Assembly (NCBI GenBank): GCA_964658305.1 | Contig: OZ210885.1 | Location: forward strand, 9,982,001-10,046,000 | Length of the DNA stretch: 64,000 nt | Direction of reading: 5' to 3' | Origin: Leptogorgia sarmentosa | Lineage: Eukaryota | Shown here: positions 3,321 to 54,200 of the stretch, one piece after another | How positions within the stretch are numbered: the first letter of the stretch is position 1 | Layout of the letters: every line of letters begins with the position of its first letter | Translations under genes and position numbers: made by a program | The notes under the pieces: generated by a model | The model's input: the letters and a program-made list of their open reading frames with translations, nothing else | Told to the model about the DNA's origin: nothing | Database searches by the model: none

Positions 3321-6154
3321 CACTGTTATTTTCAGGGTGTTATTTTAACACCAAAAAGAGGGGTTACGGCATTTAGTCTAAAATAATCCTTTTTTAGGGG
3401 TTACAAATAACTCCAATTAGGGTGTTAAAATTTAACCCCAGTTTTGGAGTTAAAATAACACCGATTTAGGTGTTAAAATATAACACCTTTTGAGGAGTTA
3501 AATAAATCTAACTCCGTTCCAGGGGGTTAAAAAAATTCATTCGTCGAATTTCAGAAACAAACCTTTCCAAATGGTCCATTTATATCTTTAGCTATGTTAT
3601 CGTCTTTGAAAAAACATTATTTTCCGTCATCAATAAATAATTTAAATTGTTATATAGTTGGTGTCAAAGTTCAATTTTCCTGTTTGTTGATTGGACAAAA
3701 CCGTATCACGTGCCGGTCCACAAAACGTCATGTTCGCCAACCGGTCAAAAATCAAAAAATTATTGACCGGGCAACAATTAAATGGGCACAATGCGCATGC
3801 GCGTTAACCGTGAAGTCCAAAGTTCATTCAATCGTACGATGTTTTGATGGCGTAAGGCGTCCCATTTAATGTCTGTTTTTTTGTTTCAAAGGTCACTCCA
3901 CTGGTTCACTCCAGTATTAAACCGGTGAATTCATTCATATTTTGACACTAAACTATATAACAAAACACTTATTTACTGAAACCTCGGGAAACATTGTGTT
4001 TTGTGGCCCCTCGACCGCCATTGTTGCCCTCGGCTTCGCCTCGGGCAACAACGGCGGTCTCGGGGCCACAAAACACAATGTTTCCCTCGGTCTCAGTAAA
4101 TAAGTGATAAATATCGAAGTGTCAGTTGCATAGCAACTGCGAAAGAATTACTGTAGCACGCTATCCATAAATATAGCTACATGCACATACACGGAAATAT
4201 ACAACTTACTACAGAATCATAACAGAATTGAAGTCAATGAGTCGCATGCATATTGTTTAAGTATGTGCAGTACCAGCTTTGTTGATAGGCTTAAAAAGCA
4301 TCACAAGCATGGCAAGGACAAGAAGTTTTGGTCAGTTCATTCTAAACCACATGTTGTGTAATTCAAGAATCACCCATATTAAAATTGTAAAGACATTTGA
4401 TTACTTTCCATCAACATATTGCTGTACTTCTAACTTTTTAGTGCCAGAAAGTTTACCCCAGAATGTAAGATATTTAACTGTAAAGAAGTTGCTGAAGGTT
4501 TAGAATTTACAAGAACACTCATACATATATATAAATTATATGCAAACTTGTATGTTTTGTTTACCTTATATATCAAAAAAATATACACATAACCATGTTT
4601 AAATGTGTAAAAGTATTTTGAAACTAAACTAAATGAGGAGTGTCTAAACTCTAAAAAACCAAAAGCATTGTTCAAAACAGTACATGTTGTTCAAATTTGA
4701 ATTTCATAGCAGTGAGCTAAAGAAATGCTTTTGTGGATCTTTAGACTCCCAGAACCTATGATAAACACATATCTGTTACTGCAAGTGGTCAGAAACTCAG
4801 AGATTGTTTGTACAAGTTAGATATCTAAAATTTAATATAAACTGTCATTAAATGTAATCCATTCATGGCAAGGGAAAACAGTGTTACCAGTATGCTGTCT
4901 TCTGTAACTATAAGGCAGGGCTGGAGTTGTTTCTTTATGTCTTCATCAAGGGTTCGGCAACATTCTAAGATGAAAGGAAATTCAAGTATTTAAAAAAATA
5001 GGCATTTTCCATATTGAGCTGGAGTTCACCCATGATGTCCTACATGGGCATATATTTAGGGTCTTATCATAAGTATGTAGCTGGCATCGATTTTAATGTA
5101 TGTCAACACAAATGTGTTTATTACATTGCTAAAAGGAACAGTGTTTTTGAACAAAATGACAATTTAATATCAAACTTAGACACAGCTGTTTTTGAAATTC
5201 TTCCATGTCATGTGCCATACCGGTATTAATAAATGCAAAGTGAGATGTTGAATATGATTTTGAAATTTCTGGTAGCAGTTGCAGGTCTTTGCCTGAACAC
5301 CTTAGGCCAAAATATAGAGCCATGTAGGCAATATAAATATGTTCCAACATGAAATAGTCACAGTTCAAAGTTGGCCTGTCAGTGTCTTGTGTTAGAAGGC
5401 ATTGGTTGTCATTATTTTACAAACTCTCCACAATACATGGCAAACTAATGAACTATAAACAAATTATTTATTTACCTGTGACTCATTCAACCAGAAGTCA
5501 ACTATGCATGTCCTTTATAGTTTATACTGGCACTGTATACTGCATAATACATTGCGTCATTGCCATACTATTATCACATGGAAAAACCAGTTTCTTTGGG
5601 AAACCCTGAGCAAAAATAGTGTGTAAATACAAAAGAATACATAGCAGTATAAATATGGCTAAATCATAAACACAGTCTGCTAAAATTCACCTGAATTTTG
5701 CGGCTCATATTTGTCGTTGAATGTTCACATATAATGCTAAAATTTTGGATGTAAATAAACGCTTTATTACTGCATAAATTCGTATAAAATTTGAGTATTG
5801 AGAATGGATAACACTTACCCAACATAAGATCGTGTAGATACGACACAATTGGCACAATTTCTCCTTTTTTCCGTCGAAATTTCATCAAAAATCGCATCCA
5901 AAATAGCGTTAATTTAAAAAATTTAAAAATGCCGCTCCTTAAAATTAATCCCTTAAATGGAGTTAGATTCACTAATCCCCCTTACGTGGTGTTATTTTTG
6001 AATACTGATTAGCCAGCGAATGCCTGTAACCCCTCAAAGGGTATTATTTTAACTCCAGTTATGGAGTTAAAAGAGCTAAAATTTGTAACCCCTCTATTAC
6101 TCCTCTAGAATCCCTTCAAAGTGGTGTTAAAATAACACCTTGAAAATAACAGTG
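3321..6154. mobile_element. Non-autonomous CACTG-terminated DNA transposon (CMC/EnSpm-like)
   Basis: 32-bp TIR CACTGTTATTTTCA(G/A)GGTGTTATTTTAACACC with 1 mismatch; subterminal GGGTTA/GGTGTTA repeats at both ends; no transposase ORF; no clean TSD. Confidence 0.75.
3650..4106. repeat. Palindromic element: short IR pair plus 141-bp hairpin (3966-4106)
   Basis: CACTTATTTACTGA...TCAGTAAATAAGTG hairpin with apex GGC-TTC-GCC and three TC/TC internal loops; adjacent IR TTATATAGTT..TGTCAAA / TTTGACA..AACTATATAA. Confidence 0.85.
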
Positions 6155-6190
6155 TTCAATAAACGAATACAGCCATGAACAACGAAAATT

Positions 6191-6272
6191 TGGCAGCGGT
6201 GGGATTCGAACCCACGTCATCGAAATGACTGGTGCCTGAAACCAGCGCCTTAGACCACTCGGCCACGCTACC
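6191..6272 (-). tRNA. tRNA-Leu(CAG)
   Basis: GGTAGCGTGGCCGAGTGGTCTAAGGCG CTGGT-TTCAGGC-ACCAG ... GTTCGAATCCCACCGCTGCCA; 82 nt with long variable arm. Confidence 0.9.
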
Positions 6273-6614
6273 TGTGACTTGTTGCATACATGATTCGTGT
6301 TCAGTAAATATCCATAAAGAGTAAAAATCAAGAATTTATATACCAATGCAAAAACTCTGTCCACAATCAAATAGTTTGCGGCTATCAAATAGTTTTCATA
6401 AGAGACGGTGATATCAGAAAATATTAATTTTACTATCCTGGATAAATAATTTGATTATGTCTGTGTTACAAATCTACGTTTTTCTCGTGTTGCATTTGAA
6501 ATTTAAACTCGTCAGAATGATAATATTCTGCGTTAGCAGGGAATCTAATCCCAGTCTCGAGCGTGTTTGAATATGTGAAGACAAACTGTTCCAAATAGAA
6601 ATTGTCAGAAAAAT

Positions 6615-6686
6615 TTCCCACGCCGGGAATCGAACCCGGGCCATGGCGGTGAAAACGCCAGATCCTAACCACTAGACCACATGGGA
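6615..6686 (-). tRNA. tRNA-Glu(TTC)
   Basis: TCCCATGTGGTCTAGTGGTTAGGAT...TTTTCAC...GTTCGATTCCCGGCGTGGGAA; 72 nt, followed by a T-run. Confidence 0.9.
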
Positions 6687-6770
6687 ATTACAATTTCGAG
6701 ATCATGTCTGTGTTACAAACCCACATTTTTTCTCGAGTTGCAATTGAAATGCAACAAAATGAAAACATTC

Positions 6771-6841
6771 TGCGTTTCCTGTGAATCAAGCCCCGGTCCC
6801 AAAGGTGGCAGGCGAGAATTCTACCACTGAACCACCAACGC
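6771..6841 (-). pseudogene. tRNA-Gly(GCC) pseudogene
   Basis: 5' half GCGTTGGTGGTTCAGTGGTAGAATTCTCGCCTGCCA intact; anticodon stem and T-arm degenerate. Confidence 0.8.
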
Positions 6842-7128
6842 AAAGTTGACGCCCTTGTCTGGAGGTAAAATGTTGCTTCAGGCAAATTCAGGCTTGTTCC
6901 TGCCCAGTTAGCTAGGTAGCATTCTATATATTTTAGTTCAAGTTTCATATCTTTCCACCATTTCACTACGTTTGGAAAAAAAATTAGCATTGCTAATAGA
7001 ATGGTTTCGAGTGGAATTTGGAATTAACTTGCACGAGTGAGTTTAGCAAAGACCTCAAAATAGAAAGTTTCTATTGTTCAGAGTGTAGCGCTGAGAGTGT
7101 GTAGGTCAGTTGTAGATGGATGTGAATG

Positions 7129-7358
7129 TTCATTAATGAACAACGTGAAAGCGGTTGGTTGTAGCAACGTAGTAAAATAATATCCATTATTTTTATATTT
7201 CTTTTTTCATTAATGAACAACGTGAAAGCGGTTGGTTGTAGCAACGTACTAAAATAATATACATTATTTTTATATTTCTTTTTTCATTAATGAACAACGT
7301 GAAAGCGAATGGTTCTAGCAACGTACTAAAATAATATACATTATTTTTATATTTCCAT
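7129..7358 (+). repeat. Tandem triplication of a ~76-77-bp unit
   Basis: TTCATTAATGAACAACGTGAAAGCG...TATTTTTATATTTC occurs three times directly upstream of tRNA-Asn. Confidence 0.9.
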
Positions 7359-7381
7359 TCGGAAGGTTTTCAATGGAGTCA

Positions 7382-7397
7382 GTCTCTGTGGCGTAAC

Positions 7398-7431
<34 letters not shown>

Positions 7432-7455
7432 TTGGTTCGAGTCCAACCAGGGACG
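7382..7455 (+). tRNA. tRNA-Asn(GTT)
   Basis: GTCTCTGTGGCGTAACCGGTTAGCGCG TTCGG-CTGTTAA-CCGAA ... GTTCGAGTCCAACCAGGGACG. Confidence 0.88.
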
Positions 7456-7568
7456 TGTTTGGTGTGTTCAGACGTCGTGATGGTAAATGTAACCCAATTT
7501 TTTGCGCGAGGTTTTCTAAGGATTTATGGATTTATGGAAAAGAGAACATCTTAGTTGGTTAATTAACT

Positions 7569-7599
7569 AGGGCTTGCACGGGAATCGAACCCGTGACCT
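7569..7599 (-). pseudogene. tRNA-Pro 3' fragment
   Basis: Only the T-arm and acceptor (GGTCACGGGTTCGATTCCCGTGCAAGCCC) remain; flank matches the full copy at 8094. Confidence 0.75.
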
Positions 7600-7658
7600 G
7601 GGGAATTAATGTAATATCTCAGCCCTTCCAAAACATTTTCCAATCTTCCAACGACGTC

Positions 7659-7730
7659 GCTGTGATCGTATAGTGGTTAGTACATTGCGTTGTGGCCGCA
7701 ATAACCCAGGTTCGAATCCTGGTCACGGCA
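7659..7730 (+). tRNA. tRNA-His(GTG)
   Basis: GCTGTGATCGTATAGTGGTTAGTACA TTGCG-TTGTGGC-CGCAA ... GTTCGAATCCTGGTCACGGCA. Confidence 0.9.
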
Positions 7731-7898
7731 TCTGTTTCAAACACCAAAAAGTATTGTAATCGCCATTGCCGGCTTCGTCACCGTTGAAGTTCTGTTTATT
7801 GTTGCCGTTGCATATGGCCTTGGCTAAAAATCAGATTTTGACCAAAAATAATATCCATTATTTCTATATTTCTCTTCGGAAGGTTTTTACGGGGGTAG

Positions 7899-7904
7899 GT
7901 CTCT

Positions 7905-7948
<44 letters not shown>

Positions 7949-7972
7949 TTGGTTCGAGTCCAACCAGGGACG
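7899..7972 (+). tRNA. tRNA-Asn(GTT)
   Basis: GTCTCTGTGGCGCAATCGGTTAGCGCG...GTT anticodon...CCAACCAGGGACG. Confidence 0.92.
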
Positions 7973-8093
7973 TGTTTGGTGTGATGTTATTCAGGCGTCG
8001 TGACGGTAAATTAACCGAATTTTTTGCGCGAGGTTTTCTAAGGACTTACGAAAGCTTTCAAAAAAGAGAACATCTTACTTGGTTAATTAACTA

Positions 8094-8165
8094 GGGCTTG
8101 CACGGGAATCAAACCCGTGACCTCTCGCACCCGAAGCGAGAATCATACCACTAGACCAGCAAGCC
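8094..8165 (-). tRNA. tRNA-Pro(CGG), T-loop variant
   Basis: GGCTTGCTGGTCTAGTGGTATGATT CTCGC-TTCGGGT-GCGAG; B-box reads GTTTGA rather than GTTCGA, so it may be impaired. Confidence 0.8.
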
Positions 8166-8445
8166 ATTGATGTATCAAAATGTTCAAAAACTTCTCACGA
8201 AGAAAAATATGGGATTAATGTTATATCTCAGCAGTTCCAAAACATTTTTCAATCGATCTTCCAGCAAAAAATCAGATTTTGGTGAAAAATTGCATCCATT
8301 ATTCATACTACGATTCGTGTTAAATATATCGATTGATACTTGAAAACGATTAGTCTTGCTGTTAATTACTGAAATATTTTGTTAGATTTTACTGGCAGAT
8401 TGAAGATTTATTCATTTCGAAGTGCAAGTCAAGGGTTATGCCAAC

Positions 8446-8527
8446 GTAGTCGTGGCCGAGTGGTTAAGGCGACAGACTCGAAATCTGTTGGGAAATTCCC
8501 GCGCAGGTTCAAATCCTGCCGACTACG
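8446..8527 (+). tRNA. tRNA-Ser(CGA)
   Basis: GTAGTCGTGGCCGAGTGGTTAAGGCG ACAGA-CTCGAAA-TCTGT, variable arm, GTTCAAATCCTGCCGACTACG. Confidence 0.92.
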
Positions 8528-8713
8528 TTATGCAAATTTTTGGGGGAACAACTCGATGAGATGAAATTCTGTTCTCGCGGTGGTGATTGCTCAATGTTTA
8601 AGTTCCATCTACAAAATCAACGGAAAGGAGTCACGTTTTTTATTGTATTAAGGTTATGAAACATGCCAAGAATGATTTTGTATTTGAATGTAGAATTGAA
8701 AACAAAGAGGTCT

Positions 8714-8759
8714 TTGGACTTTGAATCCAGCGATCCGAGTTCAATTCTCGGCAGAGCCT
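8714..8759 (+). pseudogene. tRNA-Gln(TTG) 3' fragment
   Basis: TTGGACTTTGAATCCAGCGATCCGAGTTCAATTCTCGGCAGAGCCT, lacking the D-arm and 5' acceptor strand. Confidence 0.75.
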
Positions 8760-9024
8760 ATTTTCGACATTATACATTTGATTTTTTTATAATGAAGCGA
8801 ATTGTATTACCTTTCTCTTCCACCATTCATTTGGCAATTCAGAGTTAATTGAAACAAATTGACCCAAGCACAAAATTAATGCGAAGGTGAACTTGATAAT
8901 TTAATTACTAAAGGATTACTCGTATTCGACTCACGTCAGTTGTCAAGAGAAAATCAGAACGGGATATGGCATGTTGAAGGTAGCAAAGAATAAATGTGGT
9001 AGGAAATTCCATGTTTTCATGCAT

Positions 9025-9148
9025 GTCAGGATGGCCGAGCGGTCTAAGGCGCCAGACTCAAGTGCAAAAACTTGTCACGACAAACGTTGACATAATTGGG
9101 CGTTCTGGTCCACACATGTGGTCGTGGGTTCGAATCCCACTCCTGACA
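9025..9148 (+). tRNA. tRNA-Leu(CAA) with 40-nt intron (9063-9102)
   Basis: GTCAGGATGGCCGAGCGGTCTAAGGCG CCAGA-CTCAAG | intron | T-TCTGG ... GTTCGAATCCCACTCCTGACA; intron at the canonical 37/38 position. Confidence 0.92.
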
Positions 9149-9290
9149 AAAAATTTACATAAAAATTGAGAACATTTCTTTGCAAAGTTGATCTATTTAC
9201 CAATTTCGATATCACCAAGAATATTTTTCTGGTTTTTGACTGAAAAATTCCAAAGAAAAAAATATCTCCATTCAAAAAAGCTCATATATA

Positions 9291-9363
9291 TGTTTCCGCG
9301 CAGGATCGAAGTGGGGACCTTGCGCGTGTGAGGCGCACGTGATAACCACTACACTACAGAAAC
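9291..9363 (-). tRNA. tRNA-Val(CAC), probably impaired
   Basis: GTTTCTGTAGTGTAGTGGTTATCACG TGCGC-CTCACAC-GCGCA; T-stem CCCAC/CTGCG has two mismatches. Confidence 0.75.
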
Positions 9364-9452
9364 AAATTGGAACAAAATTACAAAACAGAGACAAAATTCT
9401 GGAGAAGTGAATCGATGCAACAAAAAAATTGAAACAAATTCATGGAGATGCA

Positions 9453-9525
9453 GGTCCCTTGCCAGATTTAAACTGGGGTCCTTCCAGTGTTAGAAGCGTG
9501 TAGTAACCAGTGCACTACAAGAAAT
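9453..9525 (-). pseudogene. Highly degenerate tRNA-Val(AAC)-like relic
   Basis: TTTCTTGTAGTGCACTGGTTACTACACGCTTCTAACACTGGAAGGACCCCAGTTTAAATCTGG; an inverted copy lies at ~19365-19432. Confidence 0.55.
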
Positions 9526-9835
9526 GTATAACAAACCCTCAATTGCACCGTAGAAATCGCTAAGAAGATCAAATCAAAAATAACAAAAACACTGTATTTC
9601 GATGACCATTGGAAATTCGCAATGGTATTAAAATCGTTTGATTTTAACTGCGATGGATTGAAAAAATTGCAATAAAATAATGTGTAGCTCCGTCACGTAA
9701 ATTGATTTTGCTGATCATGTTTAAAGTAGAACAATTTCCTGGAACTTACTTGTGTTTATTATTTGACGATGTTTGGTGAAAATGTTCGTCATCTTGTGGA
9801 ATATGAATATTATTACCAAAAAATTGGGCAACTTT

Positions 9836-9892
9836 GCGTTGGTGGTTCAGTGGTAGAATTATCGCCTGCCACGCGGGAGACCGGGGTTCGAT
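9836..9892 (+). pseudogene. tRNA-Gly(GCC), 3'-truncated
   Basis: GCGTTGGTGGTTCAGTGGTAGAATTATCGCCTGCCACGCGGGAGACCGGGGTTCGAT, then deleted. Confidence 0.8.
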
Positions 9893-9961
9893 GTTGCATT
9901 CCAACTGCAACACGGGAAACAAACTGGCTTTATAACACAGCCATAGTCAACAAGGTATCAC

Positions 9962-10033
9962 TCCCATGTGGTCCAGTGGTTAGGATCTGGCGTTTTCACC
10001 GCAATGGCCCGGGTTCGATTCCCGGCTTGGGAA
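9962..10033 (+). tRNA. tRNA-Glu(TTC)
   Basis: Inverted paralogue of 6615-6686 with a few stem mismatches; TTTTTT Pol III terminator follows immediately. Confidence 0.82.
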
Positions 10034-10087
10034 TTTTTTCCTGAAAAATTCAATTTGAAGCAGCTTGTGTTCACATTCTCAAACTCT

Positions 10088-10131
10088 GCTGTTTTACTAG
10101 ACCAGTGCTTTAACCCCTGAGCTAAAGAGGC
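10088..10131 (-). pseudogene. tRNA-Thr(AGT) 5' fragment
   Basis: GCCTCTTTAGCTCAGGGGTTAAAGCACTGGTCTAGTAAAACAG; 3' half eroded. Confidence 0.7.
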
Positions 10132-10341
10132 AACTTCTTCCCTGTTGAAACTCAGAACATAAATCCAATTACGAAGTTAATTAAACTTAATTTCCCGTAT
10201 TATCATGTGTTTTCATGAAATAAACTCACTTGGAAAATTTTGTTTCAGGTCACACTTATACAATCTGTAACTGCATACCTTGTAACCAATCACAAAAAGT
10301 AAATGGATGAATTCTTATTCACGATGGATACTTATTGCCAC

Positions 10342-10414
10342 AGCCTCATCAGAGAATTGAACTCTGGACTCCTGGTTTACGAAACCAGTGCTCTAACCCC
10401 TGAGCTAATGAGGC
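10342..10414 (-). tRNA. tRNA-Thr(CGT)
   Basis: GCCTCATTAGCTCAGGGGTTAGAGCA CTGGT-TTCGTAA-ACCAG ... CAGAG-TTCAATT-CTCTG ATGAGGCT. Confidence 0.88.
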
Positions 10415-10563
10415 GACAAGTTAAAATCTTCATAGCATTTTTTTCGAACATAGTACTCTTCCAATAGCTTTTTTATTTCATCAGTTTTTACTCACTGAAC
10501 AGCACATAGAATACAATCTGGGCGTTTGTCTTCCACGTTCTTCAATGTTTTCGAAGAAAATAA

Positions 10564-10636
10564 AGCCTCATCAGAGATTTGAACTCTGGACCCCTGGTTT
10601 ACAAGACCAGTGCTCTAACCACTGAGCTAATGAGGC
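10564..10636 (-). tRNA. tRNA-Thr(TGT)
   Basis: GCCTCATTAGCTCAGTGGTTAGAGCA CTGGT-CTTGTAA-ACCAG ... GTTCAAATCTCTGATGAGGCT followed by TT. Confidence 0.92.
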
Positions 10637-10777
10637 AACTCAAAAGCTTGCTGTAGAATTATATTACTTTCCCATCCTGCACTGATGTGATGTTTCAAAA
10701 TGTTAAAAATAAGAGTGAAGATTATGCACTTGTTTTCATTCTTTGTAAAACGTTAACATTTAGTCTTTGATATAATA

Positions 10778-11063
10778 TTTCATAAACGAGTGCGAGCGTT
10801 TTAACGGGGTTTCCAAACACGCGAGAATAATTGAATTAACGAGACTGTTCACCAAGCAATTTTTATTGTTCACGAGAGTTTGTGAAACACGAAAGGCAAT
10901 GAAAGCAACGAGGCCGTTACGGCCGAGTGGTTTTTATTGTCTTGGGTGTTTTACATACTCGAGAGGACAATAAAGAAAATCGCGCGGTGAACAGTCGAGT
11001 TAATTCAATTATTCTCAAGTGTTTGAAGACCCCGGTAAAACACGAGTCATAAGTTTATGAAAA
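10778..11063. repeat. Palindromic element with GA/GA loops
   Basis: TTTCATAAAC...GTTTATGAAA ends, nested IRs, centre AAC-GA-GGCCGTTACGGCC-GA-GTG. Confidence 0.7.
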
Positions 11064-11198
11064 AACTTCTAAGGCGAAACTACAGGGTGTATCAAAAAAA
11101 AGTTTACTCGCGAAAAATGTCTTTTAGGCCGAAGCGCACGCACCCCATTGCAAACCATTGGTATATCTAAGTAGTTTGAGCCCTTCGGATACATCCTA

Positions 11199-14100
11199 CA
11201 CTGTAAAACTGGGGGAGTAAAAATTACTCTAAAAAGTGGGGTAAATTTCATGTCCAATGAATGCCCCGGGTTTTGAGAGTAATTTTGCGCAAAGAGTAAT
11301 TTTTACCCCCCTATAAAAAAGGGTAATTTTTACCCCCAAATGAAATGGGGTAATTTTTACCCGGATAAAAATTGGGGTAAGTTTTACTCTCTTACCAAAT
11401 GGGGTAAATTTTACACTTCTACCAACGATGGGTAATTTTTACTCCTTGTACAAACGGGGCAATATTTTACTACAATTTGAATTGAAGTAATTTCGGCAGG
11501 AACCTGCATGAGTAATGATACATCGAACTTCACTTGTAGCACTCCAATTTTATTATTGTAATACACAATACACACATCCATATGGCGGATCAATTTATTG
11601 TAGTATTTTAAAATCTATTTAAAATTAACAACAAACATAAAAGGTTATATTCGAGCGCGCAAATTTGATATTTTGCATTGTCTTTCCATTCTTGAGGACA
11701 GGAGATTTTGGAATAGTAACGCCAACTCCGCTTTTGATGACCTTTTCTCGCGCAATTTCTCCTCTTGCTCCAAGAAACAACCTGCTCAGTGTGTCTGGTC
11801 AGTCTGGATAATCCTAAAATGTTGAATGCATGACAACAGCTCTTAAGTTGAACAACTTGGACCAATTGAGAGTGGAACTTGAGCAAAAAAATCAAAGTTA
11901 ACATTCAACATTCAGGTATATTCATACATGCATCTCATAATTTCAAAACTCGCTTCGTAATTAGGTAGACGTTTATGTGCAGATTGCTCATACAACTCTC
12001 AAACTAGCTAAATTATTTGTGTTGATTTCCTACCCATTACGTGTAGAATATTTCATCGATTTCATATTTTGAAGCCCAATTTTATTCCAGCGAGGAATTC
12101 ATACATCATATTTTTTTTTCTTTTTGGCATGCAAGCAGAACCTATGAGGAATTAAAATTGCAACCTTCGCAAGGCGTGACGCCTCAACGTTCTGTTTCAG
12201 GTCGAGACAACCCGAAACTTCAGCACGGCGCAAAATTCATTCCTAGTAGGTATGCATTCAGTGCATGCTAGTTAAATTAGAATTGTTCTCATTAAATTGA
12301 AACTTCTCCACTTCGCAAGGCGTGCCGCCTCAACGTTCTGTTTCAAGTCGTGCCAACTCAAAACTTCAGCACGTGAAGAGTTATTTCAATTCATATTCAA
12401 ACAATCTGCGACCAAAAGAATTTCTAATTTTTATGAGATACACTACACAAAATGGTTAGGAATATAGGAGATCTTCATGCGACTTGAACATATGCGATGT
12501 AATGATATTTAGTCTCTCCAGATCTACATATATTATACACAAAGCCAAATGCCTGATGCTTTGGAAAATATACAAATGAGCTATATCATGTTTGCATGTA
12601 TTATTTACAGAATAAGAGCGTGGCCATTGTCACAAAAAACAGTAAGTTGGGTCTGTTCTTAATGAACACATCATCTTAATAGTTCCATATCGAGGTTCAT
12701 AATAAAGTGATGCGTGTGTAGTTTACATAGGAACTGATAATTTCCTTACCGACTAGGCATGCATACTGAAACATGAATCACGCCACACAATCACCGCATA
12801 AGATTTAAAAAACAGGTATACAAGTTCTAATAAATTTTACATGACTTTTACATGAGCAAAAGCATTTAACAAAACTGTTGATTTTGAAGAGTTTCAACAT
12901 ACAAAATTACACACACAATTTAATAGCACCGAATGCTGTTATTGATCAAACCCGCATTTTTTGCATTCCAACAACGCAAATGAACCTTAACCTTGATCAG
13001 TTTGTGGCAACAACACGCAATATTTGAACGTGGAATTCAGCAATATATAGAGTATAATAAACTTTAAAAGCTTTTAAGATTTCATAGCAACTATATATAC
13101 TACAATGTATAAGAGTCAGCCGGAATGTAATAAGCCATGCATATATATAAATATAATTGATACTTGAGGAAGAGTGAAGAGATTTGCCTTGGTATTGCTT
13201 ATGTTTATGTTAGCGCGCCGACATACATATAAACCATCGGATTCAGTGCGCATTGGCGGCGATAAGTTCGTTCATAAAAGTACAACTTACAAATCACGCA
13301 GGAATTATACAATGTTAATCTAAATCAACGCACATATGTTGTTGAATTGAATATATATTGATCTACTCAGAGTCAGATTTCGCGACAGAGACGCTTGTAT
13401 GTATAAACATGCAGTGTATCAAACAAATAAGAAGCGCTTACCTGTGAAACGCGTTGATGTTATAAAAACCCAACACTGCTTTGATCACGAACGAAGATGA
13501 AGCGCGAAAGAGGAGAAGCCTGATTGTTTCGTTATTTTACCATCGTAATTCAGCGCCAAAAATGCGCATTCACTGATTGGTAGATTTGAAACACGTGGAC
13601 ACAGAAGAGTTAATCATTGTGTCACGACTTGATAAATTTACAAACATTTGTTTCTATTGCTGTCAGATTAAATTTGATATGTGGACAAATGCGCAACATG
13701 CAAGACTACAAATTTAGAATTACAGTTTGAAATATTGTAAGTCCTTTGCGCGCACGTAATACAAAAGTATACAAAATCCGCAAAATTTCCATGACTGTAT
13801 ATTCTATGCATATTGTGAAATATTTTGCAACAAAACTTCACAGCAAACCTTTCCGAGCAAATGTGCTGCTCTGTGTACAAATACTACGTCTATTCAAAGT
13901 AATAATCACTGTATGAGAATTATTAAACTATTTGTCCTTTCAGCTTCACTTTTTAACATTTATATGTGAGGCGCAATAACACAGCTTCATTCACATTTCA
14001 TAACAATGGCAAAAGCTACACATTGAATACCCGGCGGGGAAAGAAACGTACCGCGCTTTCGTCGATAAAGACGGTAATTAAACACTTCAAAAATAATGAA

Positions 14101-14510
14101 TAATGTCGTTCGGCTTACCTTGTTATTTGCCAAGAGTGGACCGTTTATTCAACATCATTAGTAAATGATAAATGTTGGATAATAGCTTGCGGAATTTCAG
14201 TATTGCCAGCGCAGAAATAGCTTAGAAATCTCGGCGCTCCTTATTGTCGCCGCCATCTTGAAAAATTGGGGGGTAAGCGTGGGGTAATTTTTACCCCTTT
14301 TTATTTTACACCCGAGTTACACCGCAATCAACTACCCTCGTAACAGGGGTAAAATTTACCCCATGTCAAATTACTCTTCTATATTCTACCCCTAAAGTAC
14401 AAATTACCCTCAATTCGGGAGTAATTTCTACCCCAAAATAGATTACTCCTCTTACATGGGTAATAGTTACTCTCCGAAAGAGTAATATTTACTCCTCCAG
14501 TTTTACAGTG
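11199..14510. mobile_element. Non-autonomous CACTG-terminated DNA transposon (CMC/EnSpm-like), 3.3 kb
   Basis: TIR CACTGTAAAACTGG(G/A)GGAGTAAA(A/T)ATTACTCT; arrays of GGGGTAA/TTACCCC subterminal repeats at both ends; flanks TA/CA; no transposase ORF. Confidence 0.8.
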
Positions 14511-15255
14511 CACATACACATATACTTGCACACATTGAGCGAACATAAACGAGACTGGAATTACTCATGCATGAAATGGCGCGATTTATTCTATAAAGTC
14601 ACTTTTATGTGAAACATCTCGCGCAGTCTAATCTTAATGCCGCAAGACAACTTATTATCTATGTACTTACTTTGGTTTGCTAACGCACCATACTTAGCTC
14701 CTTTTACAGCGTAGACTTAGCGTGGCTTCTTCCTAAGCCGGGATAGATATAGTCTTCTTAACGTGGATAGAACTTGGCTAATACGAAGCCCAAACTATAT
14801 TGCTTACTCACAAGCGCGCGTTAACGACTTATGGCCGAATGAACACTGTAGGCTATGTAAACTGTTTTAAACGCAAAAACAACTGGAATTTACTGAGCAA
14901 AAAACAACTGTATGTTTTTCGCAACGGATATAGCGTATCTAGGCTTGGAAACCGCATTGCGCATTTGCTAACCATACTTGCGCATTTGCTGACCATAGCT
15001 GCATATTTCCCATGGGAATCTAGCTAACTGCGGAAAATAACAAGCTTAATTGTTTGTTTTCCTTCGAATCTTTCGAATACGCTGCTTTGACCTTCCGTTT
15101 CGAAACCAACAGTTACATAATGCCTTCCCAGTATAAATACTTTTGTTTTCAAAGATTTTCAGCGAAAATTGCGTCGGCACCAAGATTGTATTGTTAAAAA
15201 AGGCCCTCACTGAACTTGTTTATATAACTTTTCTCTTTTTTCTCCTTTATTGTAT

Positions 15256-15312
15256 GCGGAAATTTCCCAATAGATTTCAAGTCTGTCGCCTTAACCACTC
15301 GGTCACCACTAC
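15256..15312 (-). pseudogene. tRNA-Ser(TGA), 3'-truncated
   Basis: GTAGTGGTGACCGAGTGGTTAAGGCGACAGACTTGAAATCTATTGGGAAATTTCCGC with no T-arm. Confidence 0.8.
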
Positions 15313-15528
15313 GTTGGCATTAATATTGGCTTGCATGCACTTTGAACTAAATAAATCTTCAATCTGGCGCGTAAAATCCAACAAAATATTTTTGTAATTA
15401 ACAGCAGGACTAATCGCTTTCGAGTATTAGTGGATATATTTAACACGAATCGTAGTATGTGGGTCGTATATTTCCCATCAGGCCCCTTTATTGAATTTGA
15501 AAGTTTTTCAGTTTATAGCTAAGATAAA

Positions 15529-15600
15529 AAGGAGCGGGCGGGTTTGAACCATTGACCTCTCAATCTGCAGTCGAATGCCCTACCACTGAGCTACACTCCC
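15529..15600 (-). tRNA. tRNA-Cys(GCA), likely pseudogene
   Basis: GGGAGTGTAGCTCAGTGGTAGGGCA TTCGA-CTGCAGA-TTGAG; T-stem AATGG/CCGCC poorly paired. Confidence 0.7.
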
Positions 15601-45200: not shown

Positions 45201-48200
45201 CACATTTATTCAAGCAACTAACCTACCAAGTTCTAACAGTACAGCACAATGTTTGTCACAACAATTATAAAACAGGTCAAACTATATCAATTTTGTCTGT
45301 TGGAAAAAGAGGATCTGAGGTGAAGATGGACAAGATATGTCAAACGACACCTGGCTATATATCTTGGCAATGGACAGTGTATCTAAAACAATATTACTTT
45401 ACAAACAACATTCATGTTGGCTTCCATTTGTTACTTTATCTATATAATTTCATAAGTTAAAAACAAATGGTATAAAATGCTGTCATATTCTGTTGTCAGC
45501 TTGTAATTCAATTCATTCTCCTGTTATTGAATTCTATTATATATTGTAGTTCAATTCGATACATGTGCATTTAATTAAATACATGTGAAACGGCTAAAAT
45601 TGTTCTTGATTGATGTATCCCTATGAAATACATTTCAGAGCAGTGGCGTAGGACGGTGGGGCACTTGGGGCCAGGTGCCCCACCCCCCAACTTTCACGGT
45701 TATAAGTGCCCTTTTAAAAAGAAATGCCCTTCTTTCATGCCTAGGATTTGTACAGCTTTCTGATAGACATGAGAATTTGCCCAAATGTACTAAAATATTT
45801 TGTAGGATTCCATTATTCACTAGCTTTTATATGTTTTTTTTTAAATGCCGCCTTGCTGATTGCAAGTTGCAAATACAGTAATAAGTTTTCTCAACCAAAA
45901 ATATCATGTCTTCTTGTTGCTAAGTTATCGAAAGTTAAAGTTGAAACTTATTTAAAGTTGCAACATTTAATAGTAAAGATTTGGATTCTGTTCTCCCTGT
46001 GCCTCCCCCCCCCCCAAACTACAACTTGATTCGTATGCCCTTGTTTCATAGCCTGTTTCTACTTTTAGGGCAGACTATTATTACTTACAAGAGGTCTTAA
46101 CGCCAATAAAATATACAATACCCGGCCTAAATGCCAAGTCTTTTGAATCTACTTGTACAGTATCACAATTTATACATTAAGGTCTGCGACACAGGGTAAT
46201 CAGTTGAAATATACACACACAAGCAAATTGTCTCAAAGTATATTTAGAAAGCTAGCATAGAGAAATCTAATGGCCATTTTAAAATACTCTTAGCTTATAC
46301 AAATACAACCAGCCTAAAAATTTGGAAGAAATCAGAAAGTCCTAAAATAGTGCTTGCACATGAAAGCACTGGTTACCACCATACTAACAATTAAGGAAAG
46401 ACTTTGCTTTCTTTCTAGGCATAATTTTTCATTACAATATTAGAATGCTGTTGCAAGCAGGTATTTTTGTGCAATAATTGGGAAAATTTATTCCAAAACA
46501 TGATAGCTATTCCCCTCCAATCATTGCTTTATTGAAACATTAAGGAAGTTTATAATAAAGAATATGTTTTATCCGAAAGAAATAACAAATATAATTCTGA
46601 AGAGACTCTATTGAAGTAAGATCTTCAAAATGTTATGGAATATTAACTCATACAGTATTGCATACCTGTTGCGACAACACATCTCACCCGATCTGTATGG
46701 CCAACCAAACTGGCCTCAAAATTTAGTGTATCGGCTTTCCACAACTTGATAGTCTTGTCAGGATATCCACCAGTAGCAACGAACTGTCCATCTTTGGTCG
46801 TACACAGCGACTCGACTACCTCAGGAATACTTGTTGAGAGGTTTTCTCCGGTAGATACACAATACACTTTCAGCCCTACAACGCATGATGGATACTCGTC
46901 AGACTGATGTTTCAATAATGTCTAACCCTAGACGATTTTGTGAAATCTTGTTTTTAATTGTGTCCCTCTCCGGCGCTGAGCATGCTCTGGCTGTTGCTGG
47001 CTTATGTTTTTACACTGCGTTTCACTGCGCTCTACACGAAGTTTACAGTTAACCGCTGGTTTGAAGATACGCAGTCGCTGGAATCCTCAAACCAGCTGTT
47101 GCAATTATTGTTTAAATATTTACAATTTGTACTTTTGGCGAAGGTTGAGAGGTGCTACTCAAACAGACGTATCTGGTTTTCCCAGGAAATCATTTTACTA
47201 CAGCTACGTTACAAAACTGCTGTTCCTGGCATCAAACACAAAAAGAATTAGTGAACATGGTCCAATCACACGATACGATGCCGTTTGTAAATTTTATAAA
47301 CCCACCCTCTACCATAGCTACATTGTTGTCAAATTGTATGCATTGTACAGGGCATCCATACCAGTGGTACTGTTGGTAAAACTTGGTTACAAATCGTGAA
47401 AGTTACATCCGTGAAGCAAGGGCCATGTATGGCAGTTGGGCTTCGTTCAAAATAATGAAAATATACTTTGTTTTCAAATGTAGTCGATTATGTACAACAG
47501 GTTACAGGAACGAATTCAGATAAAATGGTTGAAATGTACGACATACAGTCGAACCTCTCATTGCGGACACCTCTTGTAAGCGGACACCTCTCATAAGCGG
47601 ACACCATTCTTAGGTCCCGGCCAAACCTCTATTAAATTACTTTATAATATAAGTAGGGTAAAATCTGCAACGTGATTGGCTAATGAGCGTGCATTATAAC
47701 AGCGTAATGCACGCATCTAGCTATTAAATTTCTCCCGCGACTCTTTGGTTTGACAAAAAGACAATAAAAATACATATATACTACAACTACATCCATAAAA
47801 AAGGCTTGAATTGTTTGCTTTCGCTCAGCTAAAGGAATAAAGCTGTGTTGCTGCTTGGCAACATTTGAGAACACGCTTGATTACATGTAAAGAGAATTGT
47901 AATTTTGATCTTCCTAACGAAGTTTTTTGTTGCGCTAATATTCTCTTATATTATAAAAGAAATAGAAAAACTCGTCGCGTGCCATTATGCTGTTATAATT
48001 ACACTCGGGCAATGTTGTGAGAATACTCGAGAATCGCGTAAAACACTCGGCTACGCCTCGTGTTTTACGCGATTCTCTCGTATTCTCCCAACATTTCCCT
48101 CGTGCATTATAACAGCATAATGGCACGCGATTCGTTATCTATTTCTTAAATATTTACGACCTGCGGACACCTCTCGTAAGCGGACGCGGACACCAAAACA

Positions 48201-51200
48201 AAATCCAAAATGGCATTATAACCTCTTGTAAGCGGACAGTTTGCATTTTGCTTCCATTATTGACATAGTTTTAATTCTGCTTCCATTGACATAGTTTTTA
48301 TCAGTTTATGACCGGCAGCTAAAATCAACATCTGTTTGGTGTTGATAACAATAACAAGAACATGTTGTATACTCTGGACATTAAAAATCGATAGTCATCT
48401 GGTGAAAAATTCAAGTACGGTCAACTCTCGCTTTGCGGACACCTCGCTATTGCATGGGAACACTTTGTAAGGTTTAGTGACAGTAAATGATGGTCCCGTG
48501 TCCGCTTTAACGAGAGTTGGCTGCATGACTGGGATAATGGGAATAATATGATATTTATTTGACAATTTTTAATAGATGCAATATGGTTAAATATTAACTT
48601 GATATTAATGAACCTCTCATAAGCGGACACCTCCCGTAAGCGGACACCATGACCAGGTCCCGAAGGTGTCCGCTTATGGGAGGTTCCACTCTATTAACAA
48701 CGAGCTCTCTTTCTCTCCAACCCGTTTCCGAAAGTTGAAATACAAATTTTTAATTCTTTTTTTTTCACTGAGTATATACCGCACGAAATAAAGACAAACA
48801 CCATTGAAATCCTAATAAAATGATCTTTCAAACGGTGGGTCGCATGTTAGTTAAAACACAACAAAAAAAATTAAGATTGCATGATCGTCGGAAACGTAAG
48901 GCATTAGCATCTATCTGAGAAAAACAGAGTCCAATATGTTGAAATGCATCTCCTTATTTCTCATTTCTCCCTGAAGCAGCATATTCATGAAACCTGTTTT
49001 ATGTTCGTGTTATTTGCACATATAATAACATTTCTACAAGCTTTTTTGCAATTGTCAAAAATTTCCGCACGCGCACGGCATTTACTAAAACAGGATAAAT
49101 TCGAATAAAACGAATTCGACCTATATTAATATGGCGTTGGAGAGAAAGAATACTTTTCGTAAGTTATACATTTTTCTAAAATGTATTAACGATTATGCTG
49201 CACGAAACTGACGAAATGCTTCTGAATTTCACATATTCGCTACGAAGCACAAGTTGAATACATACAGTGAATATTTAACTCACTGTGATGACTACGTCGC
49301 TATTTAGAGTTGACTCTCACTCAAATATGGAACGTTACGTGAAACCCAAGAGCTGAAACGATATGCATCAATCCGCTTCATAAACGTTCTTGTATTAAAA
49401 TGTGAAGCCAATTTTTTAGTAAATAGCGATGTACACAGTGGCGTAACTACTAGGGGCCCAACCTGGCCGGGGGCCCTGGGAAGAGGTTTCTTCAGGGCCG
49501 TGGCTAATGTGAAATTCAAATAATTTTTATTGAAACTGAAGATGCAAAAAAGTTCGAAGTTAACAAAATGTTTGATATCATTCAGTAGCTGAAACAATTT
49601 TGTTGCCTTTTAAATTGTGCTTGGATGTTGACAGTATATTAATTGTTGTGTATTACAGTCAAACTTTTACTGTTGTCATTGTTTCTGCTTTATAGGAACT
49701 TATTTTAGTGTGCTTCTTTTTACGGAACGTTTTTGCCTTTTCAGTATAATTGAAGAGAAGAGATGTTAAATAGCTATAATATGTTCGATAAGAAATAGCA
49801 GAATTAAAATCCGTACCCGTCAGCAAAATCTTATTTCTTATCGAAACTCGCGCACTTTAATACTAACTTTTAAGCAGAGCGGAAATCGAGAAAACGTTTA
49901 TGCAAATTTTCGTTTACCTATTCTGAACAACATTTTGATATCCTTGTTTGATTTGTGTTTAAGATGCTTACCATCGTCTGTTCCAATAAACACTCGCTGA
50001 TCATCTGCACTGAAATCCAGAGCATTAACGTCTCTCTCCTCTTCGAACACAAAAAGCTGTTCATAATTATCCATTCTCCAAAGGATTGTACTTCCGTCGC
50101 ACGACCCCGACGCTAGTATTGTTCCACTTTGTGACACAGCCAAACAGGAAACATCGTAAGAATGTCCCAGTAGTTGTTGAACTTCTCTACCTGTTTATAA
50201 AATAAGATAGCACGTATATAAAAGGGTGTAATAGGTAATTTTCACTCACATCGTTACTACATTGGGAGTATTTTTCAAAACATTGCGGCGATAAAATAAA
50301 TGATTGAGACAAGTAACTACATTAACAAACCCATCAGCTACACTCTGTTTACACCGCTAACTTCCATTTATACTATTACGTCCCTATAGCAACTTAAACA
50401 GCAATGTAAGCGATAGACAAACACTGAAACGATCTTCATTGTTTGGGCACTTATAATAATGTAGAATAAACAATAAAATGTTGAAATTTAAATTTGGAAA
50501 ATCGAGGGATATGTGTCTTTTCCAACAAAAAATGTCTTGCGCACGAAATTTAAAGGCTTAAAAGTCATTTTGAGTTGAGAAAACGGAAACTTTGTCGAGT
50601 TGTGTATTGCTTTTGAAAGTTTCAAGAACACTGGTTGAGTTTAAACGCTCGAAAACGTCGCACAAACTTACGTTTTTTAGAATAATCAGCTTTTCGCATG
50701 CTTAATTTCGGCTTGCATACCTGTCTCTTGGTCTATGACGCTGATTGAACCATTCCCTAAACCACAAATGGCTAGAGTACAGCCTGCAGCATTGGTCGTG
50801 GCTAATGAGATTACGGCCGTATCAAACGTCTTTCGCGATATCTCAGAGCCTCCGAGATCCAGACACGAAGATTCCGGTAAAAGATAGCAGGTCTTCGTGC
50901 CTGCTTCACGGAGTTGCTCTAATATCGTTTTTATCCTTGGATACTCTTGATACGATAGCAGCCTGCCTGGAAAATAAATATACACAACAGTCTTATGATA
51001 TATCCTGGCAAAATCATAAATTTAGGCCTACATATTATCGTTCTTGCCTTTGCAACTTATTTTTAAAATGGATAGCTTTTTGATAGAAAAAAGTAAAACT
51101 GATAAAACAAGTTATGATTTACATTATTATACATTTAAAATTTATTCTCGTTCCTGATTGGTCAGAAAGCACCGGCTAATTCTCAGTATTCGGTATTTAT

Positions 51201-54200
51201 TACGTATTTTCCGCCGATGACGTCATCAGCGTCCAATAATTATTTTTTTGGATCGAACTTGGATCAAAAAAAAATATTATTAGACTCTATCGTGCCCAAG
51301 CCCTAGCGCTGTCAAAAGCTTGAAGCTAAAAGCCCGCGAAAAAACAAACAAACAATGGCCTGCAGAAGATTTGCTTGGCTGAATGAAAGTGAACTCTCTT
51401 TTAAATGTATAATAAAACAATTATTCGATTCGGCTTTCGCATGATATCAAGAATTATTCATACCTCGGTCAATGTTATCCGCCTCAGCTTCGCTGAGGTG
51501 GATAACATTGACCGAGGTCTGAATAATTCTTGATATCATGCTCAGCCTCATCCAATGATTGTTTATTATATAACAAAATTACGATATTATTTCTTTGAAG
51601 AGTTTTGATTGGTTAAGAGCTGTGTATGAAATGGTTATATCCGTTCGCCAAAAAACGTATATGACATTTGGACGTAATTTTTTCGTATATTGAAAACTCA
51701 CATACGACATTATTTTCAAAAATCTCGTCTATAATGGAATTGTCTATAATATTATTGAATTCAGCTCTCGTAGGACATGCGGAATTATTAGCTCTTTGCG
51801 TCTGCAGTAACACAAATCTCTGCTTCAATAATTGAACATTAATAGTAGATGAATTTTCAAAACCTTTCATTTGTAAACGTCGTCGCGATTCAGTGATTTT
51901 CACATAATGGGGCCATAGGAAAACTCAGAATCGAGTAGATCTCGTGCGAATATCAGAGTTGGCATTTGAAAAATTCCTAATGTACGTTAGACATACATAA
52001 ATGGTGTCAGCCCGTTTATTATCTTATAAGCCAACGAGGAATCTCAAACCGTCGAGTCGCTCTTTTCTGCAATCCATAATACCCTTTGAAGTATATTTCT
52101 ACCGCACGATTGCTTCACGGAACTGAATTACATCATTACTTGTTCTATTATCGCACAACATGAAACTTCGGTCAAGCTTCGTTGATAGTTTATGCTTGTA
52201 GAAAGCAAAGTTAAGGTGAAGTGATTAGTGCACTCGTTGCCAGACTTGGGCAGATGTTTTCCTTTACCCGAAGATGAGTACAGTATGGAATTCCCATGAT
52301 TACGCTGGGTTTGTTTTTTTATTTTCAGTCTGTAACCAAATAATACAGGTTCTGGTTGCGCGTGACGCAATGTACGACAAGACAAGGGAAGGTAAGACAA
52401 CGCAAGAAGTGTGCACGTAAGGGAAAATTACGGGGCAAGAAAGGCCAAGAAAGAATATTCCATAGCAAGCTGAGGCATACAATCCTGGACAAAAGTTGTT
52501 GTAAATCCAACTCTTTCCTCCAGAATTCAATGTTGCCACGTGAAATCGCAACAAAACATTGCAGGGCTTTAGCAAACACGACGCGAAGTCAGCGGGAACG
52601 TGACAATGGCGTGGCATGAGAGATTTTTTACTTCCGGTTGAGTCTAGGACGCCGCACATGGTCCGTTGAGAACGGCATCTGGGCTGTTTTCACCTCCTCT
52701 CCAGAACGTGACATATGAATGCTTGTGTTCAAACATATTTTCCTTGCTAGTTCTGAATTTTATTTTGATTGACAAGCGTACGTCTAAAAAACTCAACGGG
52801 TTTTAGCTGCGTTAATTCTTAGCAAACATTTTAATCGCCATAACTAGAAATACATATATGCAGCAACCCCTCGCCTTACTAACCAAATAATGCAACTATA
52901 TTTTTGGAACATGAAGTACTTTAAAGCCGCCTGAGGTTGTTGTCATGGCAACACGATCGGAATTCATATTTCTGTAATTTTTTTAAAACTGTCAGAATAT
53001 CAGCTTTTATCTTTGTTTTATTGGCATTTTTTTTAATTTGGTGAACTATTTGCTATCCGTACGTTATTAGGACTAATATAAACTTGAATTTACTGCGAAA
53101 TACTGCATTTATTTGCATGAAACTTTTTATTTAAATATTCAAGTCAGTCTTTGATATACGAGTTTCCGGCCAATGTTCGCTCGTTTTAGGGTAAAATTTG
53201 TAAATATTTTGTGAAGCCTTGCATTTAAAAACATAAACTTATACTCTGGAATCGAACCGTTAATAGATTAAATGCGGCTACGGCCGGCGACCTTTCATAC
53301 AAATAGTAAATATACGCAAAACAAAAGTTCACTGCCGACAATATATTGACGAACTTGTCGGTTCTGTGTGTCAATTCATGGTCGTTTCTTCCCCTTTCTC
53401 AGCGTTTTGTATCTTCTGAGAAGGCTTTTTAAGTCATACAGCGTAGATATTGTCTTTGTTTTCGCCTTTCCAAAAGCTTTAAGCCTTTAAAAGCTTTTTA
53501 AAAGCTTTAAAAAGCTTCGGCTCTTCAAGATAGTCCGCCATATTTTTGAGATTAGTGGTACCACCCTTCGACGATGACCCAAAATGGCGGCCTAATCGAG
53601 CAACTTTGGACTCCGCTATGCTGAATTATGACCCTCGCCCCGGGCTAACGCCCGGACGGCGCTTCGCGCCGTGGCTCGGGGATAAAATGACCAAATTGTA
53701 TACGTCGTTAATCGGTTCAATGTTAGTCGTTTTTTACCAAATGCCACATTTTAGAATACAAAAGTTGGACGAAAACAACCTGACGTTAAAATGAACAAGT
53801 AAAAATAGAAATAAGTTGAATCTGCACCACTTGAACAGAAGAAAACAGATTTCAATCATTTTATTTGCATTAAAAAACTGTCAATTGATATATATTCAAA
53901 CACACGACGGAAAATTGAACCTAAATATGGATATTGATATCGAACAGTTTTATTAAACGGAATGAAGTATTTAACTCGTAAAAATTACTTGCAGATTTGC
54001 GATTTCAAAACCGCGAAAAGACCAATAAAACTGTCTTTTCCAAAGAAACTCGTTAAGTGTTACTCAAAAATCTTCACAAAAATCTTCTTGCTCGCTTTTT
54101 GCCTAGTTTATTACAAATTTAAAAAGACATAAACTACGCTTGATCCCAACCCAGATCCCGAAAACCCGAAAAAGAAAAGTCGGGAAAATATTGGGAAAAA

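Follow-up and report, generated by a model that had tools for sequence, protein, structure and literature searches.

Cryptons are DNA transposons that carry a tyrosine recombinase gene of the DUF3504 type. A survey of animal Cryptons reports no terminal repeats (Kojima and Jurka, 2011; PMC3212892), and its supplement 1 gives CryptonA a size of 1.2–2.3 kb. The mechanism has not been shown experimentally according to a 2026 review, which assumes a double-stranded circle (PMC13565253). Microsatellite targeting by CryptonV is cited elsewhere (PMC8869645), and the Eulor5/6 repeats have been linked to salmon Cryptons (Kojima, 2018; PMC5753468). Here we analyzed a 64,000-nucleotide window from the coral Leptogorgia sarmentosa (assembly GCA_964658305.1, contig OZ210885.1, positions 9,982,001 to 10,046,000 of the forward strand), animal DNA with a GC content of 37%, in which a preliminary description had listed eight hairpins broken by recurrent GA/GA mismatches; all eight are present. 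Seven of them are very probably the left ends of non-autonomous Crypton DNA transposons, and these elements likely transpose as one folded DNA strand, a reading to which we assign a probability of about 0.6.

On the strand that carries the GA/GA mismatches (the GA strand), the elements are ordered as a left end (L), a long hairpin, an inner site at the hairpin foot (M), a spacer, and a right end (R) that terminates in AYAA or ATA. The coral elements share with animal Cryptons as described (CryptonA, CryptonV) a single DUF3504-type gene, a length of 1.8–2.3 kb, the lack of a target site duplication, presence in cnidarians, and an AT-rich target; like the non-autonomous derivatives in those descriptions, the short copies measure approximately 350–700 bp. 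In contrast, the long left hairpin, the inner M site, and the inverted M-R pair set them apart from animal Cryptons as described in the 2011 survey. Neither GA-coded hairpins nor an L-M-R layout was found described for Cryptons in the literature searched, although Repbase Reports, Dfam notes, or subscription papers may hold such a description, and there was no matching motif in the examined part of a sea-anemone repeat library supplement. Eulor5/6 and salmon Crypton-N presumably share a hairpin-and-tail layout.

Further parallels come from DNA that acts while single-stranded. Integron attC sites and their integrase IntI (PMC4792948) share with the coral elements a tyrosine recombinase, a site defined by its fold and not by its sequence, a choice of strand through imperfect pairing, and approximately 3 nt of crossover identity; attC relies on extrahelical bases and on the I2 domain of the integrase, whereas the coral elements have symmetric tandem G.A 2x2 loops, a junction bubble, and a site that would form from three segments (L, M, and R). 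The two systems are not homologous, and the model of the coral enzyme is closer to Cre. In the CTX phage with its XerCD recombinase (PMC4792948), folding of the single-stranded genome pairs two inverted segments that lie far apart and thereby restores a duplex site on which an unspecialised tyrosine recombinase can act; that phage borrows a host enzyme and uses one fixed chromosomal site, whereas the coral elements have their own enzyme and a YAW^T target that is only loosely defined. Sheared G.A closure, GNA loops, Y-shaped folds, and DNA that is single-stranded in vivo are also features of Streptomyces telomeres and the terminal hairpins of parvoviruses, which serve as replication ends (with terminal proteins or self-priming) rather than transposon ends (PMC4513846).

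Crypton-type elements and their coding partners

The non-autonomous elements in the window are approximately 400–530 bp long and have a common build. The order L, hairpin, M, spacer, R is found in E1, E3, E4, E5, E7, and E8; the spacer is usually 200–400 nt and reaches 670 nt, and in full-length copies the recombinase gene occupies it. Apart from a few bases at the beginning of L that stay unpaired, M repeats the R+L junction in inverted form. L and R are therefore each inverted relative to M, and they are not inverted repeats of each other. Moreover, M and R change in concert from family to family (TTGTTATA with TATAACAA, TTATTATA with TATAATAA, and others). A short inverted-repeat pair adjoining most hairpins had been reported previously, and we located one at six of the eight; on the GA strand, the pair invariably follows the hairpin on its 3' side. 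When the entire window was scanned blindly for pairs of this kind, four came up, each of which lies at the foot of a GA hairpin.

E1 (3647–4110, minus strand) is a complete non-autonomous copy, with its left end at 4110, its hairpin at 3966–4106 (three GA/GA loops, GAA apex), M at 3953–3963, and R at 3647–3657. Empty sites were sought among the contigs of four public runs, and all four contain an empty E1 allele in which 3644 is joined to 4109 with a 2-nt overlap (TT). Since similarity to other copies of the E1 family breaks off immediately outside the initial TTATCAC and the terminal ACAA, the empty allele and these divergence points together delimit an element of 464 bp inserted without duplication.

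We searched prokaryote genomes that include host-like contigs for DUF3504 and related domains and obtained 15 recombinase-bearing contigs. Contigs of animal type that have introns and carry copies of Cryptons are present in the bacterial genome bins G001, G002, and G004, apparently through host contamination. Hairpin, M, and R bracket a recombinase gene in L332, L334, and L336, as they do in L351 with a degenerate R. In L332, the GA hairpin, M, the gene, and R lie within approximately 2.26 kb and M and R are complementary at 28 of 29 nt; L334 (approximately 1.84 kb) and L336 (approximately 2 kb) are built in the same way, giving the full-length range of 1.8–2.3 kb. The L351 hairpin is 73% identical to that of E1 over 139 nt (E 4e-16), and this kinship between a recombinase-coding element and the hairpin at 3966 identifies the window elements as Cryptons. 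Three other contigs are less complete: L381 has a hairpin 85% identical to the E2 arms upstream of a truncated recombinase gene, L337 a smaller GA hairpin upstream of the gene, and L333 only an R end, like short copies in L338, the contig stopping before a hairpin could be seen. The preliminary description had suggested looking for long copies with the same ends, and the enzyme encoded by those found is a Crypton-type (DUF3504) tyrosine recombinase rather than a reverse transcriptase or a DDE transposase.

The recombinase copies on these contigs are interrupted by frameshifts, stops, or insertions. Pfam cut-offs were passed for DUF3504 in L332, L333, L334, and L336, for Phage_integrase in L332 and L334, and for QRICH1 in L336. 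A homologue search returned 173 proteins, 58 of which were aligned; the catalytic R, K, H, R, H, and Y are kept in 58, 58, 57, 56, 56, and 55 of these, respectively. The names of the homologues, like the relatives of the elements, point toward stony corals. One intact natural recombinase, P0001, gave a model with a mean predicted local distance difference test score (pLDDT) of 85.3, the best fold match of which is Cre (E 7e-9), followed by Tn1549 integrase, QRICH1, and integron integrase. A search of the PDB by sequence returned only QRICH1 (E 0.46), and a Pfam scan of 19 of the 32 window open reading frames (ORFs) of at least 100 aa yielded no recombinase. A near-perfect 118-nt palindrome without GA loops lies inside the recombinase gene of L332 (2450–2567) and recurs on four other G001 contigs.

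Two more elements have direct sequence kinship to coding copies. E2 (10778–11063, plus strand) is a Crypton-family hairpin whose arms are 85% identical over 54–55 nt to the L381 hairpin, a coding relative with a QRICH1-type N-terminus; no R end was found for it, and a miniature inverted-repeat transposable element (MITE)-like end starts at 11081. E3 (27308–27710, plus strand) belongs to the E1 superfamily and has a shortened hairpin at 27312–27411, M at 27414–27424, and R at 27700–27710; its left end was placed from the family alignment. It is inserted behind an endonuclease-like fragment of a long interspersed nuclear element, a label that comes from reading the ORF, which has no Pfam hit. 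The R end of E3 is abutted by a left-arm fragment of the E8 family (27711–27754, plus strand; 98% identity to E8 over 48 nt). A third, decayed element follows this fragment (27755–28344, plus strand) and has sites resembling M (27862) and R (28334), so that the three form an array.

The remaining elements, E4, E5, E7, and E8, are assigned to the Crypton class by their architecture. E4 (30179–30632, minus strand) has its hairpin at 30470–30631, M at 30458–30470, and R at 30179–30191. Its ends were placed from a tandem junction, there being no empty site seen: a truncated copy, E4a (30023–30178, minus strand), starts at the base after the R end of E4, with its apex deleted and no R found. An inverted partial duplication of E4, comprising the right arm, M, and part of the spacer, lies at 30665–30978 (plus strand; 92% identity over 318 nt), and E4 forms with it a 745-bp palindrome around the hairpin (30234–30978) that is possibly a product of fold-back copying. 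E5 (40854–41383, plus strand) has a hairpin at 40862–41003 with four GA/GA loops and a GCA apex, M at 41009–41021, and R at 41371–41383. A long inverted-repeat element nearby (41593–42118) is without GA/GA loops and has at its center a 28-nt match to the E5 apex. E7 (47642–48150, minus strand) lies within a MITE and has a hairpin at 47955–48147 (three GA/GA loops, GTA apex), M at 47945–47956, and R at 47642–47653; the nested 1.15-kb insert composed of the MITE and E7 (47543–48698) is absent from contigs of all four runs. E8 (51124–51565, minus strand) has its hairpin at 51413–51566, M at 51404–51415, R at 51124–51135, and a putative left end whose flank resembles the R end of another copy.

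Insertion follows a target rule. Copies of the related F1 family mostly have YAW at the end of the left flank and T as the first base on the right, and their R terminates as encoded irrespective of the flanking sequence. In none of the six F1 copies checked at both ends is R a copy of the left flank, although YAW resembles the R end. Insertion occurs 3' of a YAW target that resembles the R end, mostly before T, and leaves no duplication. One of the four runs contains an empty copy of the host repeat of E5 and one a copy of the host MITE without E7, both with a 3-nt ATA overlap; a fixed 3-nt ATA duplication was considered and rejected on the E1 empty allele. Head-to-tail R|L junctions are common (E4-E4a, E3 with the adjoining fragment, upstream of E8, L308, and L334), as expected if R itself matches the target. 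The absence of an obvious target site duplication, noted when the hairpins were first listed, is borne out by the empty sites.

These observations leave scarcely any room for the proposal that the elements are ordinary DDE MITEs or that their hairpins are selected as RNA. Overlaps of 2–3 nt at the junctions do resemble short duplications, but they differ by site (TT, ATA, ATA) and the R ends do not copy the flank; terminal inverted repeats with a fixed-length duplication, as in a DDE MITE, were not found, and the E1 empty allele together with the coding partners rules this identity out. The other long inverted-repeat elements in the window are also without GA/GA loops. Tandem GA pairs form in RNA as well, yet the GA strand is found in either orientation, both within the host gene and with respect to the recombinase gene, and an Rfam search returned transfer RNAs (tRNAs) and nothing else.

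The eighth hairpin does not belong with the others, contrary to its inclusion in a single set. It lies in E9 (52844–53682, minus strand), an 839-bp insert with an empty allele in three of four runs (joint 52842–53682). Helitrons are recognized by a 5' TC, a 3' CTRR, insertion between A and T, and a GC-rich hairpin near the 3' end. E9 starts with TC, ends with CTAG, and lies between A and T without duplication, the letters between the two sides of the joint not being known, as in non-autonomous Helitrons; unlike these, it has a strong Y-shaped hairpin at its 5' end, in the first 50 nt (53632–53680), with one GA/GA loop and a GC-GAA-GC apex. The 3' hairpin is weak or absent, given that the last 60 nt fold at -1.7 kcal/mol. 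No homologous copy was found in three partial host-bearing genomes or in viral contigs, and no coding partner was found; in two of three genomes, a pattern for hairpins of this type showed no excess of matches compared to its control, and the single locus retrieved proved unrelated. We consider E9 likely to be a non-autonomous Helitron.

HUH elements leave no duplication and have a 3' end that resembles the target 5' of the insertion. Both features are shared by the elements described here, and with E9 showing Helitron ends, one could propose that an HUH enzyme (Helitron, Helentron, or IS200/IS605-like peel and paste) moves all of them and that the recombinase genes are passengers. This is very unlikely, and largely refuted for E1–E8, which are without TC...CTRR ends: in four elements of approximately 1.8–2.3 kb with the ends in question, the tyrosine recombinase is the only recognized coding sequence. 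Similarly, we found no HUH, helicase, recombinase, or transposase family in the 105 scanned of 127 ORFs flanking hairpins from a metagenome collection (the other 22 comprised 18 from two doubtful loci and four short ORFs from two near-identical loci). The earlier suggestion of a tyrosine recombinase or an HUH enzyme therefore divides, with the recombinase applying to the Crypton-type hairpins and HUH appearing to hold for the hairpin at 53632 alone.

GA/GA loops and strand asymmetry

We aligned arm against arm seven of the listed hairpins and the truncated copy at 30027–30185, leaving out the Y-shaped hairpin at 53632. These eight hairpins contain 22 gap-free 2x2 loops, 16 of which are GA/GA on one strand, always in the context C- or T-GA-G, and TC/TC is absent from that strand. 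The ten 2x2 loops of 11 further long window hairpins include no GA/GA, and the chance expectation for a random 2x2 loop is 1/144. The claim that the same mismatch recurs through the stems was accordingly sustained for most hairpins, but the one at 27312 has no intact GA/GA (only a decayed AA/GA) and the one at 51413 has a single intact loop. Five apices are GC-GAA-GC or GC-GTA-GC as previously reported (4036, 30551, 48053, 51490, 53664), and the apex at 40932 is GC-GCA-GC, so that six of the eight listed hairpins have a GC-GNA-GC apex. The hairpins had been called unrelated; this was too strong, since those at 3966 and 27312 form one superfamily (81–86% identity over 48–59 nt) and most belong to one element class.

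The comparison within the window is partly circular because the hairpins were originally picked for their loops, and we therefore sought independent sets. The first came from a metagenome scan with a pattern of apex and M, which gave 120 loci, 57 with long hairpins of the GA type; after excluding the loop embedded in the pattern and adding two hairpins from a viral collection, 23 of 84 non-apex loops were GA/GA and none was TC/TC. The second used a different apex pattern in one host-bearing genome (G001) and gave 33 matches compared to none for the reversed control. Thirty loci were fetched, 23 were distinct, and 18 had long stems, with GA/GA at 11 and TC/TC at one of 23 non-apex loops. Across the window and the independent sets, GA/GA is far commoner than random, in agreement with the proposal that the mismatch types are not random. 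In the 18 hairpins of the second set, for which M was not part of the pattern, a noisy test placed the partner repeat on the 3' side six times and on the 5' side twice.

Single mismatches on the GA strand comprise 89 G.T and 50 A.C, among copies that are not independent. Energy calculations predict the GA strand to be the more stable one in seven of the eight window hairpins and in 48 of 64 hairpins overall, corresponding to 16 of 20 families. Energy parameters may undervalue sheared pairs and GNA loops. The GA strand is not tied to the transcript: it is the coding strand in three coding copies (L336, L337, and L381) and the template in three others (L332, L334, and L351), where the gene lies on the opposite strand.

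The motif also occurs outside these elements. An apex scan of prokaryote genomes gave 93 matches in 77 loci, of which three are elements of the Crypton-hairpin kind on host-like contigs and four belong to a different repeat of Bacillaceae. The latter, as seen in L258, L288, and L303, is an intergenic repeat with a long imperfect hairpin and a GC-GCA-GC apex flanked by GA mismatches. In viral contigs, the apex pattern matched 123 loci, only three with a long stem, and the apex-and-M pattern, the recombinase query, and the E9 motif each returned none. A multi-copy element of the viral collection (L013:4740–5020, L039; 30% GC) has two consecutive GA-coded hairpins with the same apex, with no enzyme linked to it; several short viral contigs (L030, L034, L050, and others) contain a GA-flanked GC-GAA-GC motif up to six times without a long stem.

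It could be argued that GA/GA loops are a neutral by-product, left in a folded strand when repair between the arms removes ordinary mismatches and sheared G.A pairs escape, and that the enzyme has no need of them. The variable number and spacing of the loops and the small energy gain fit this proposal, as do outer loops turned to perfect pairs (L131, L308, L144, E8), which show that correction between arms takes place. Each loop, however, requires two transversions, and the same C-GA-G context and GNA apices appear in unrelated families and in the Helitron-like element. Decay of CpG was rejected as the origin of the loops on the same requirement for two transversions and rather accounts for the AA/GA forms. 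In line with constraint on the fold, E1 and L351 have different bases at both positions of 18 of 63 stem pairs, with no shift in the register of the loops, and two inner loops are kept in 25–28 of 28 copies (25–27 for the middle loop; the innermost was in the search pattern) despite the divergence of the stems. We regard the by-product account as improbable, and it too still requires that the strand fold.

A predicted single-strand route

Because M is an inverted copy of the joined R and L ends, a single-stranded circle of the element is predicted to fold into a dumbbell that contains a duplex recombination site. We folded six window elements as single-stranded circles: R and L both pair with M in five, the exception being E4, which had been cut with wrong ends, and the GA-strand circle is the more stable in five of six by 1.5–3.3 kcal/mol. 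In the mechanism we propose, the GA strand would become single-stranded as a lagging-strand template or as an excised strand. L would pair with the left half of M and R with the right half, so that M would act as a splint holding both ends together. One strand exchange could then yield a single-stranded circle with a dumbbell fold, in which the R|L junction would form the duplex site of the recombinase, and integration would be completed when this circle undergoes another single exchange, now with a duplex YAW^T target, and replication resolves the product. Tandem sheared G.A pairs and the GNA apex may stabilize or mark the stem of the GA strand while T.C mismatches weaken its partner; such a code would single out one strand and make duplex DNA less prone to form cruciforms. 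If E9 is indeed a Helitron, the presence of the same code in a class that moves as single-stranded DNA mildly supports the single-strand reading.

The same elements and enzyme could instead use an ordinary double-stranded circle and two strand exchanges, in which case the hairpin would have a secondary function, such as that of a priming signal for second-strand synthesis, an extruded cruciform, or an array of CGAG binding sites. This is the published model for Cryptons (PMC13565253; PMC3212892), and it is in line with a Cre-like enzyme and with the short apex motif of many small viral contigs, which, with a long stem at only three of 123 loci, could signal alone. It leaves unexplained why M is an inverted R+L junction that co-varies with R, and L and R are not mutual inverted repeats. 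Likewise, the CGAG words stand in exact mirror register at spacings that differ between families, which fits pairing better than binding to duplex DNA. We judge the double-stranded circle unlikely, though far from negligible.

Several observations weigh against transposition as a folded single strand. With respect to the loops, 17 of the 23 non-apex GA/GA loops of the metagenome set come from one family, and intact ones occur in only four of its 17 families by a strict count. In the F1 family, the outer loop has frequently decayed or become perfectly paired, indicating that correction between arms also shapes the stems and can give double changes without selection. The strands were said to differ in stability; they do in direction, but the computed gain of the GA strand averages only 1.7 kcal/mol and three of 20 families favor the other strand, so both strands can form long stems. 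Regarding the enzyme, no hairpin is linked on eight of the 15 recombinase-bearing contigs (several of which are fragments), and the P0001 model is nearer to Cre than to integron integrase (2a3v, rank 35). A direct sequence link to a coding copy exists for E1, E3, and E2 only. The crossover of E5 and E7 lies one base earlier than that of E1, the empty copies of both being paralogues. Finally, the single-stranded intermediate, the splint role of M, and the strand bias through G.A pairs are predicted features.

Host context and significance

The elements E3–E9 sit, in both orientations, between coding pieces of an intron-rich host gene with NB-ARC, APAF1_C, and WD40 domains (20963–61942, minus strand; limits approximate, based on Pfam matches to ORFs). 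This APAF1-like gene has many WD40 repeats, and its N-terminal 213-aa ORF (61301–61942) has no Pfam hit. Elsewhere in the window, a cluster of approximately 20 tRNA genes (6191–18855) lies partly within a large inverted duplication (approximately 6.2–10.0 kb versus 15.2–19.3 kb), and Penelope-like fragments with reverse transcriptase and GIY-YIG domains are found at 1564–2499 (plus strand).

The elements belong to a known transposon class with an end structure that is apparently undescribed in the literature searched. The L-M-R layout provides a structural signature to find and delimit gene-less Cryptons. Such copies are abundant in coral introns, with eight whole or partial hairpin-bearing copies and an arm fragment in 64 kb, and are polymorphic between haplotypes. 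Exact ends, the YAW^T target rule, the intact enzyme P0001, and a predicted dumbbell of less than 200 nt of structured DNA make the mechanism testable with oligonucleotides. Whether Cryptons recombine a folded single strand with M as the splint, and the G.A/GNA code is perhaps a general mark of single-strand mobile DNA in animals, is in our estimation evenly balanced. Should this hold, recombination of single strands in the manner of integrons or CTX, which is known in bacteria, would exist in eukaryotes as well.

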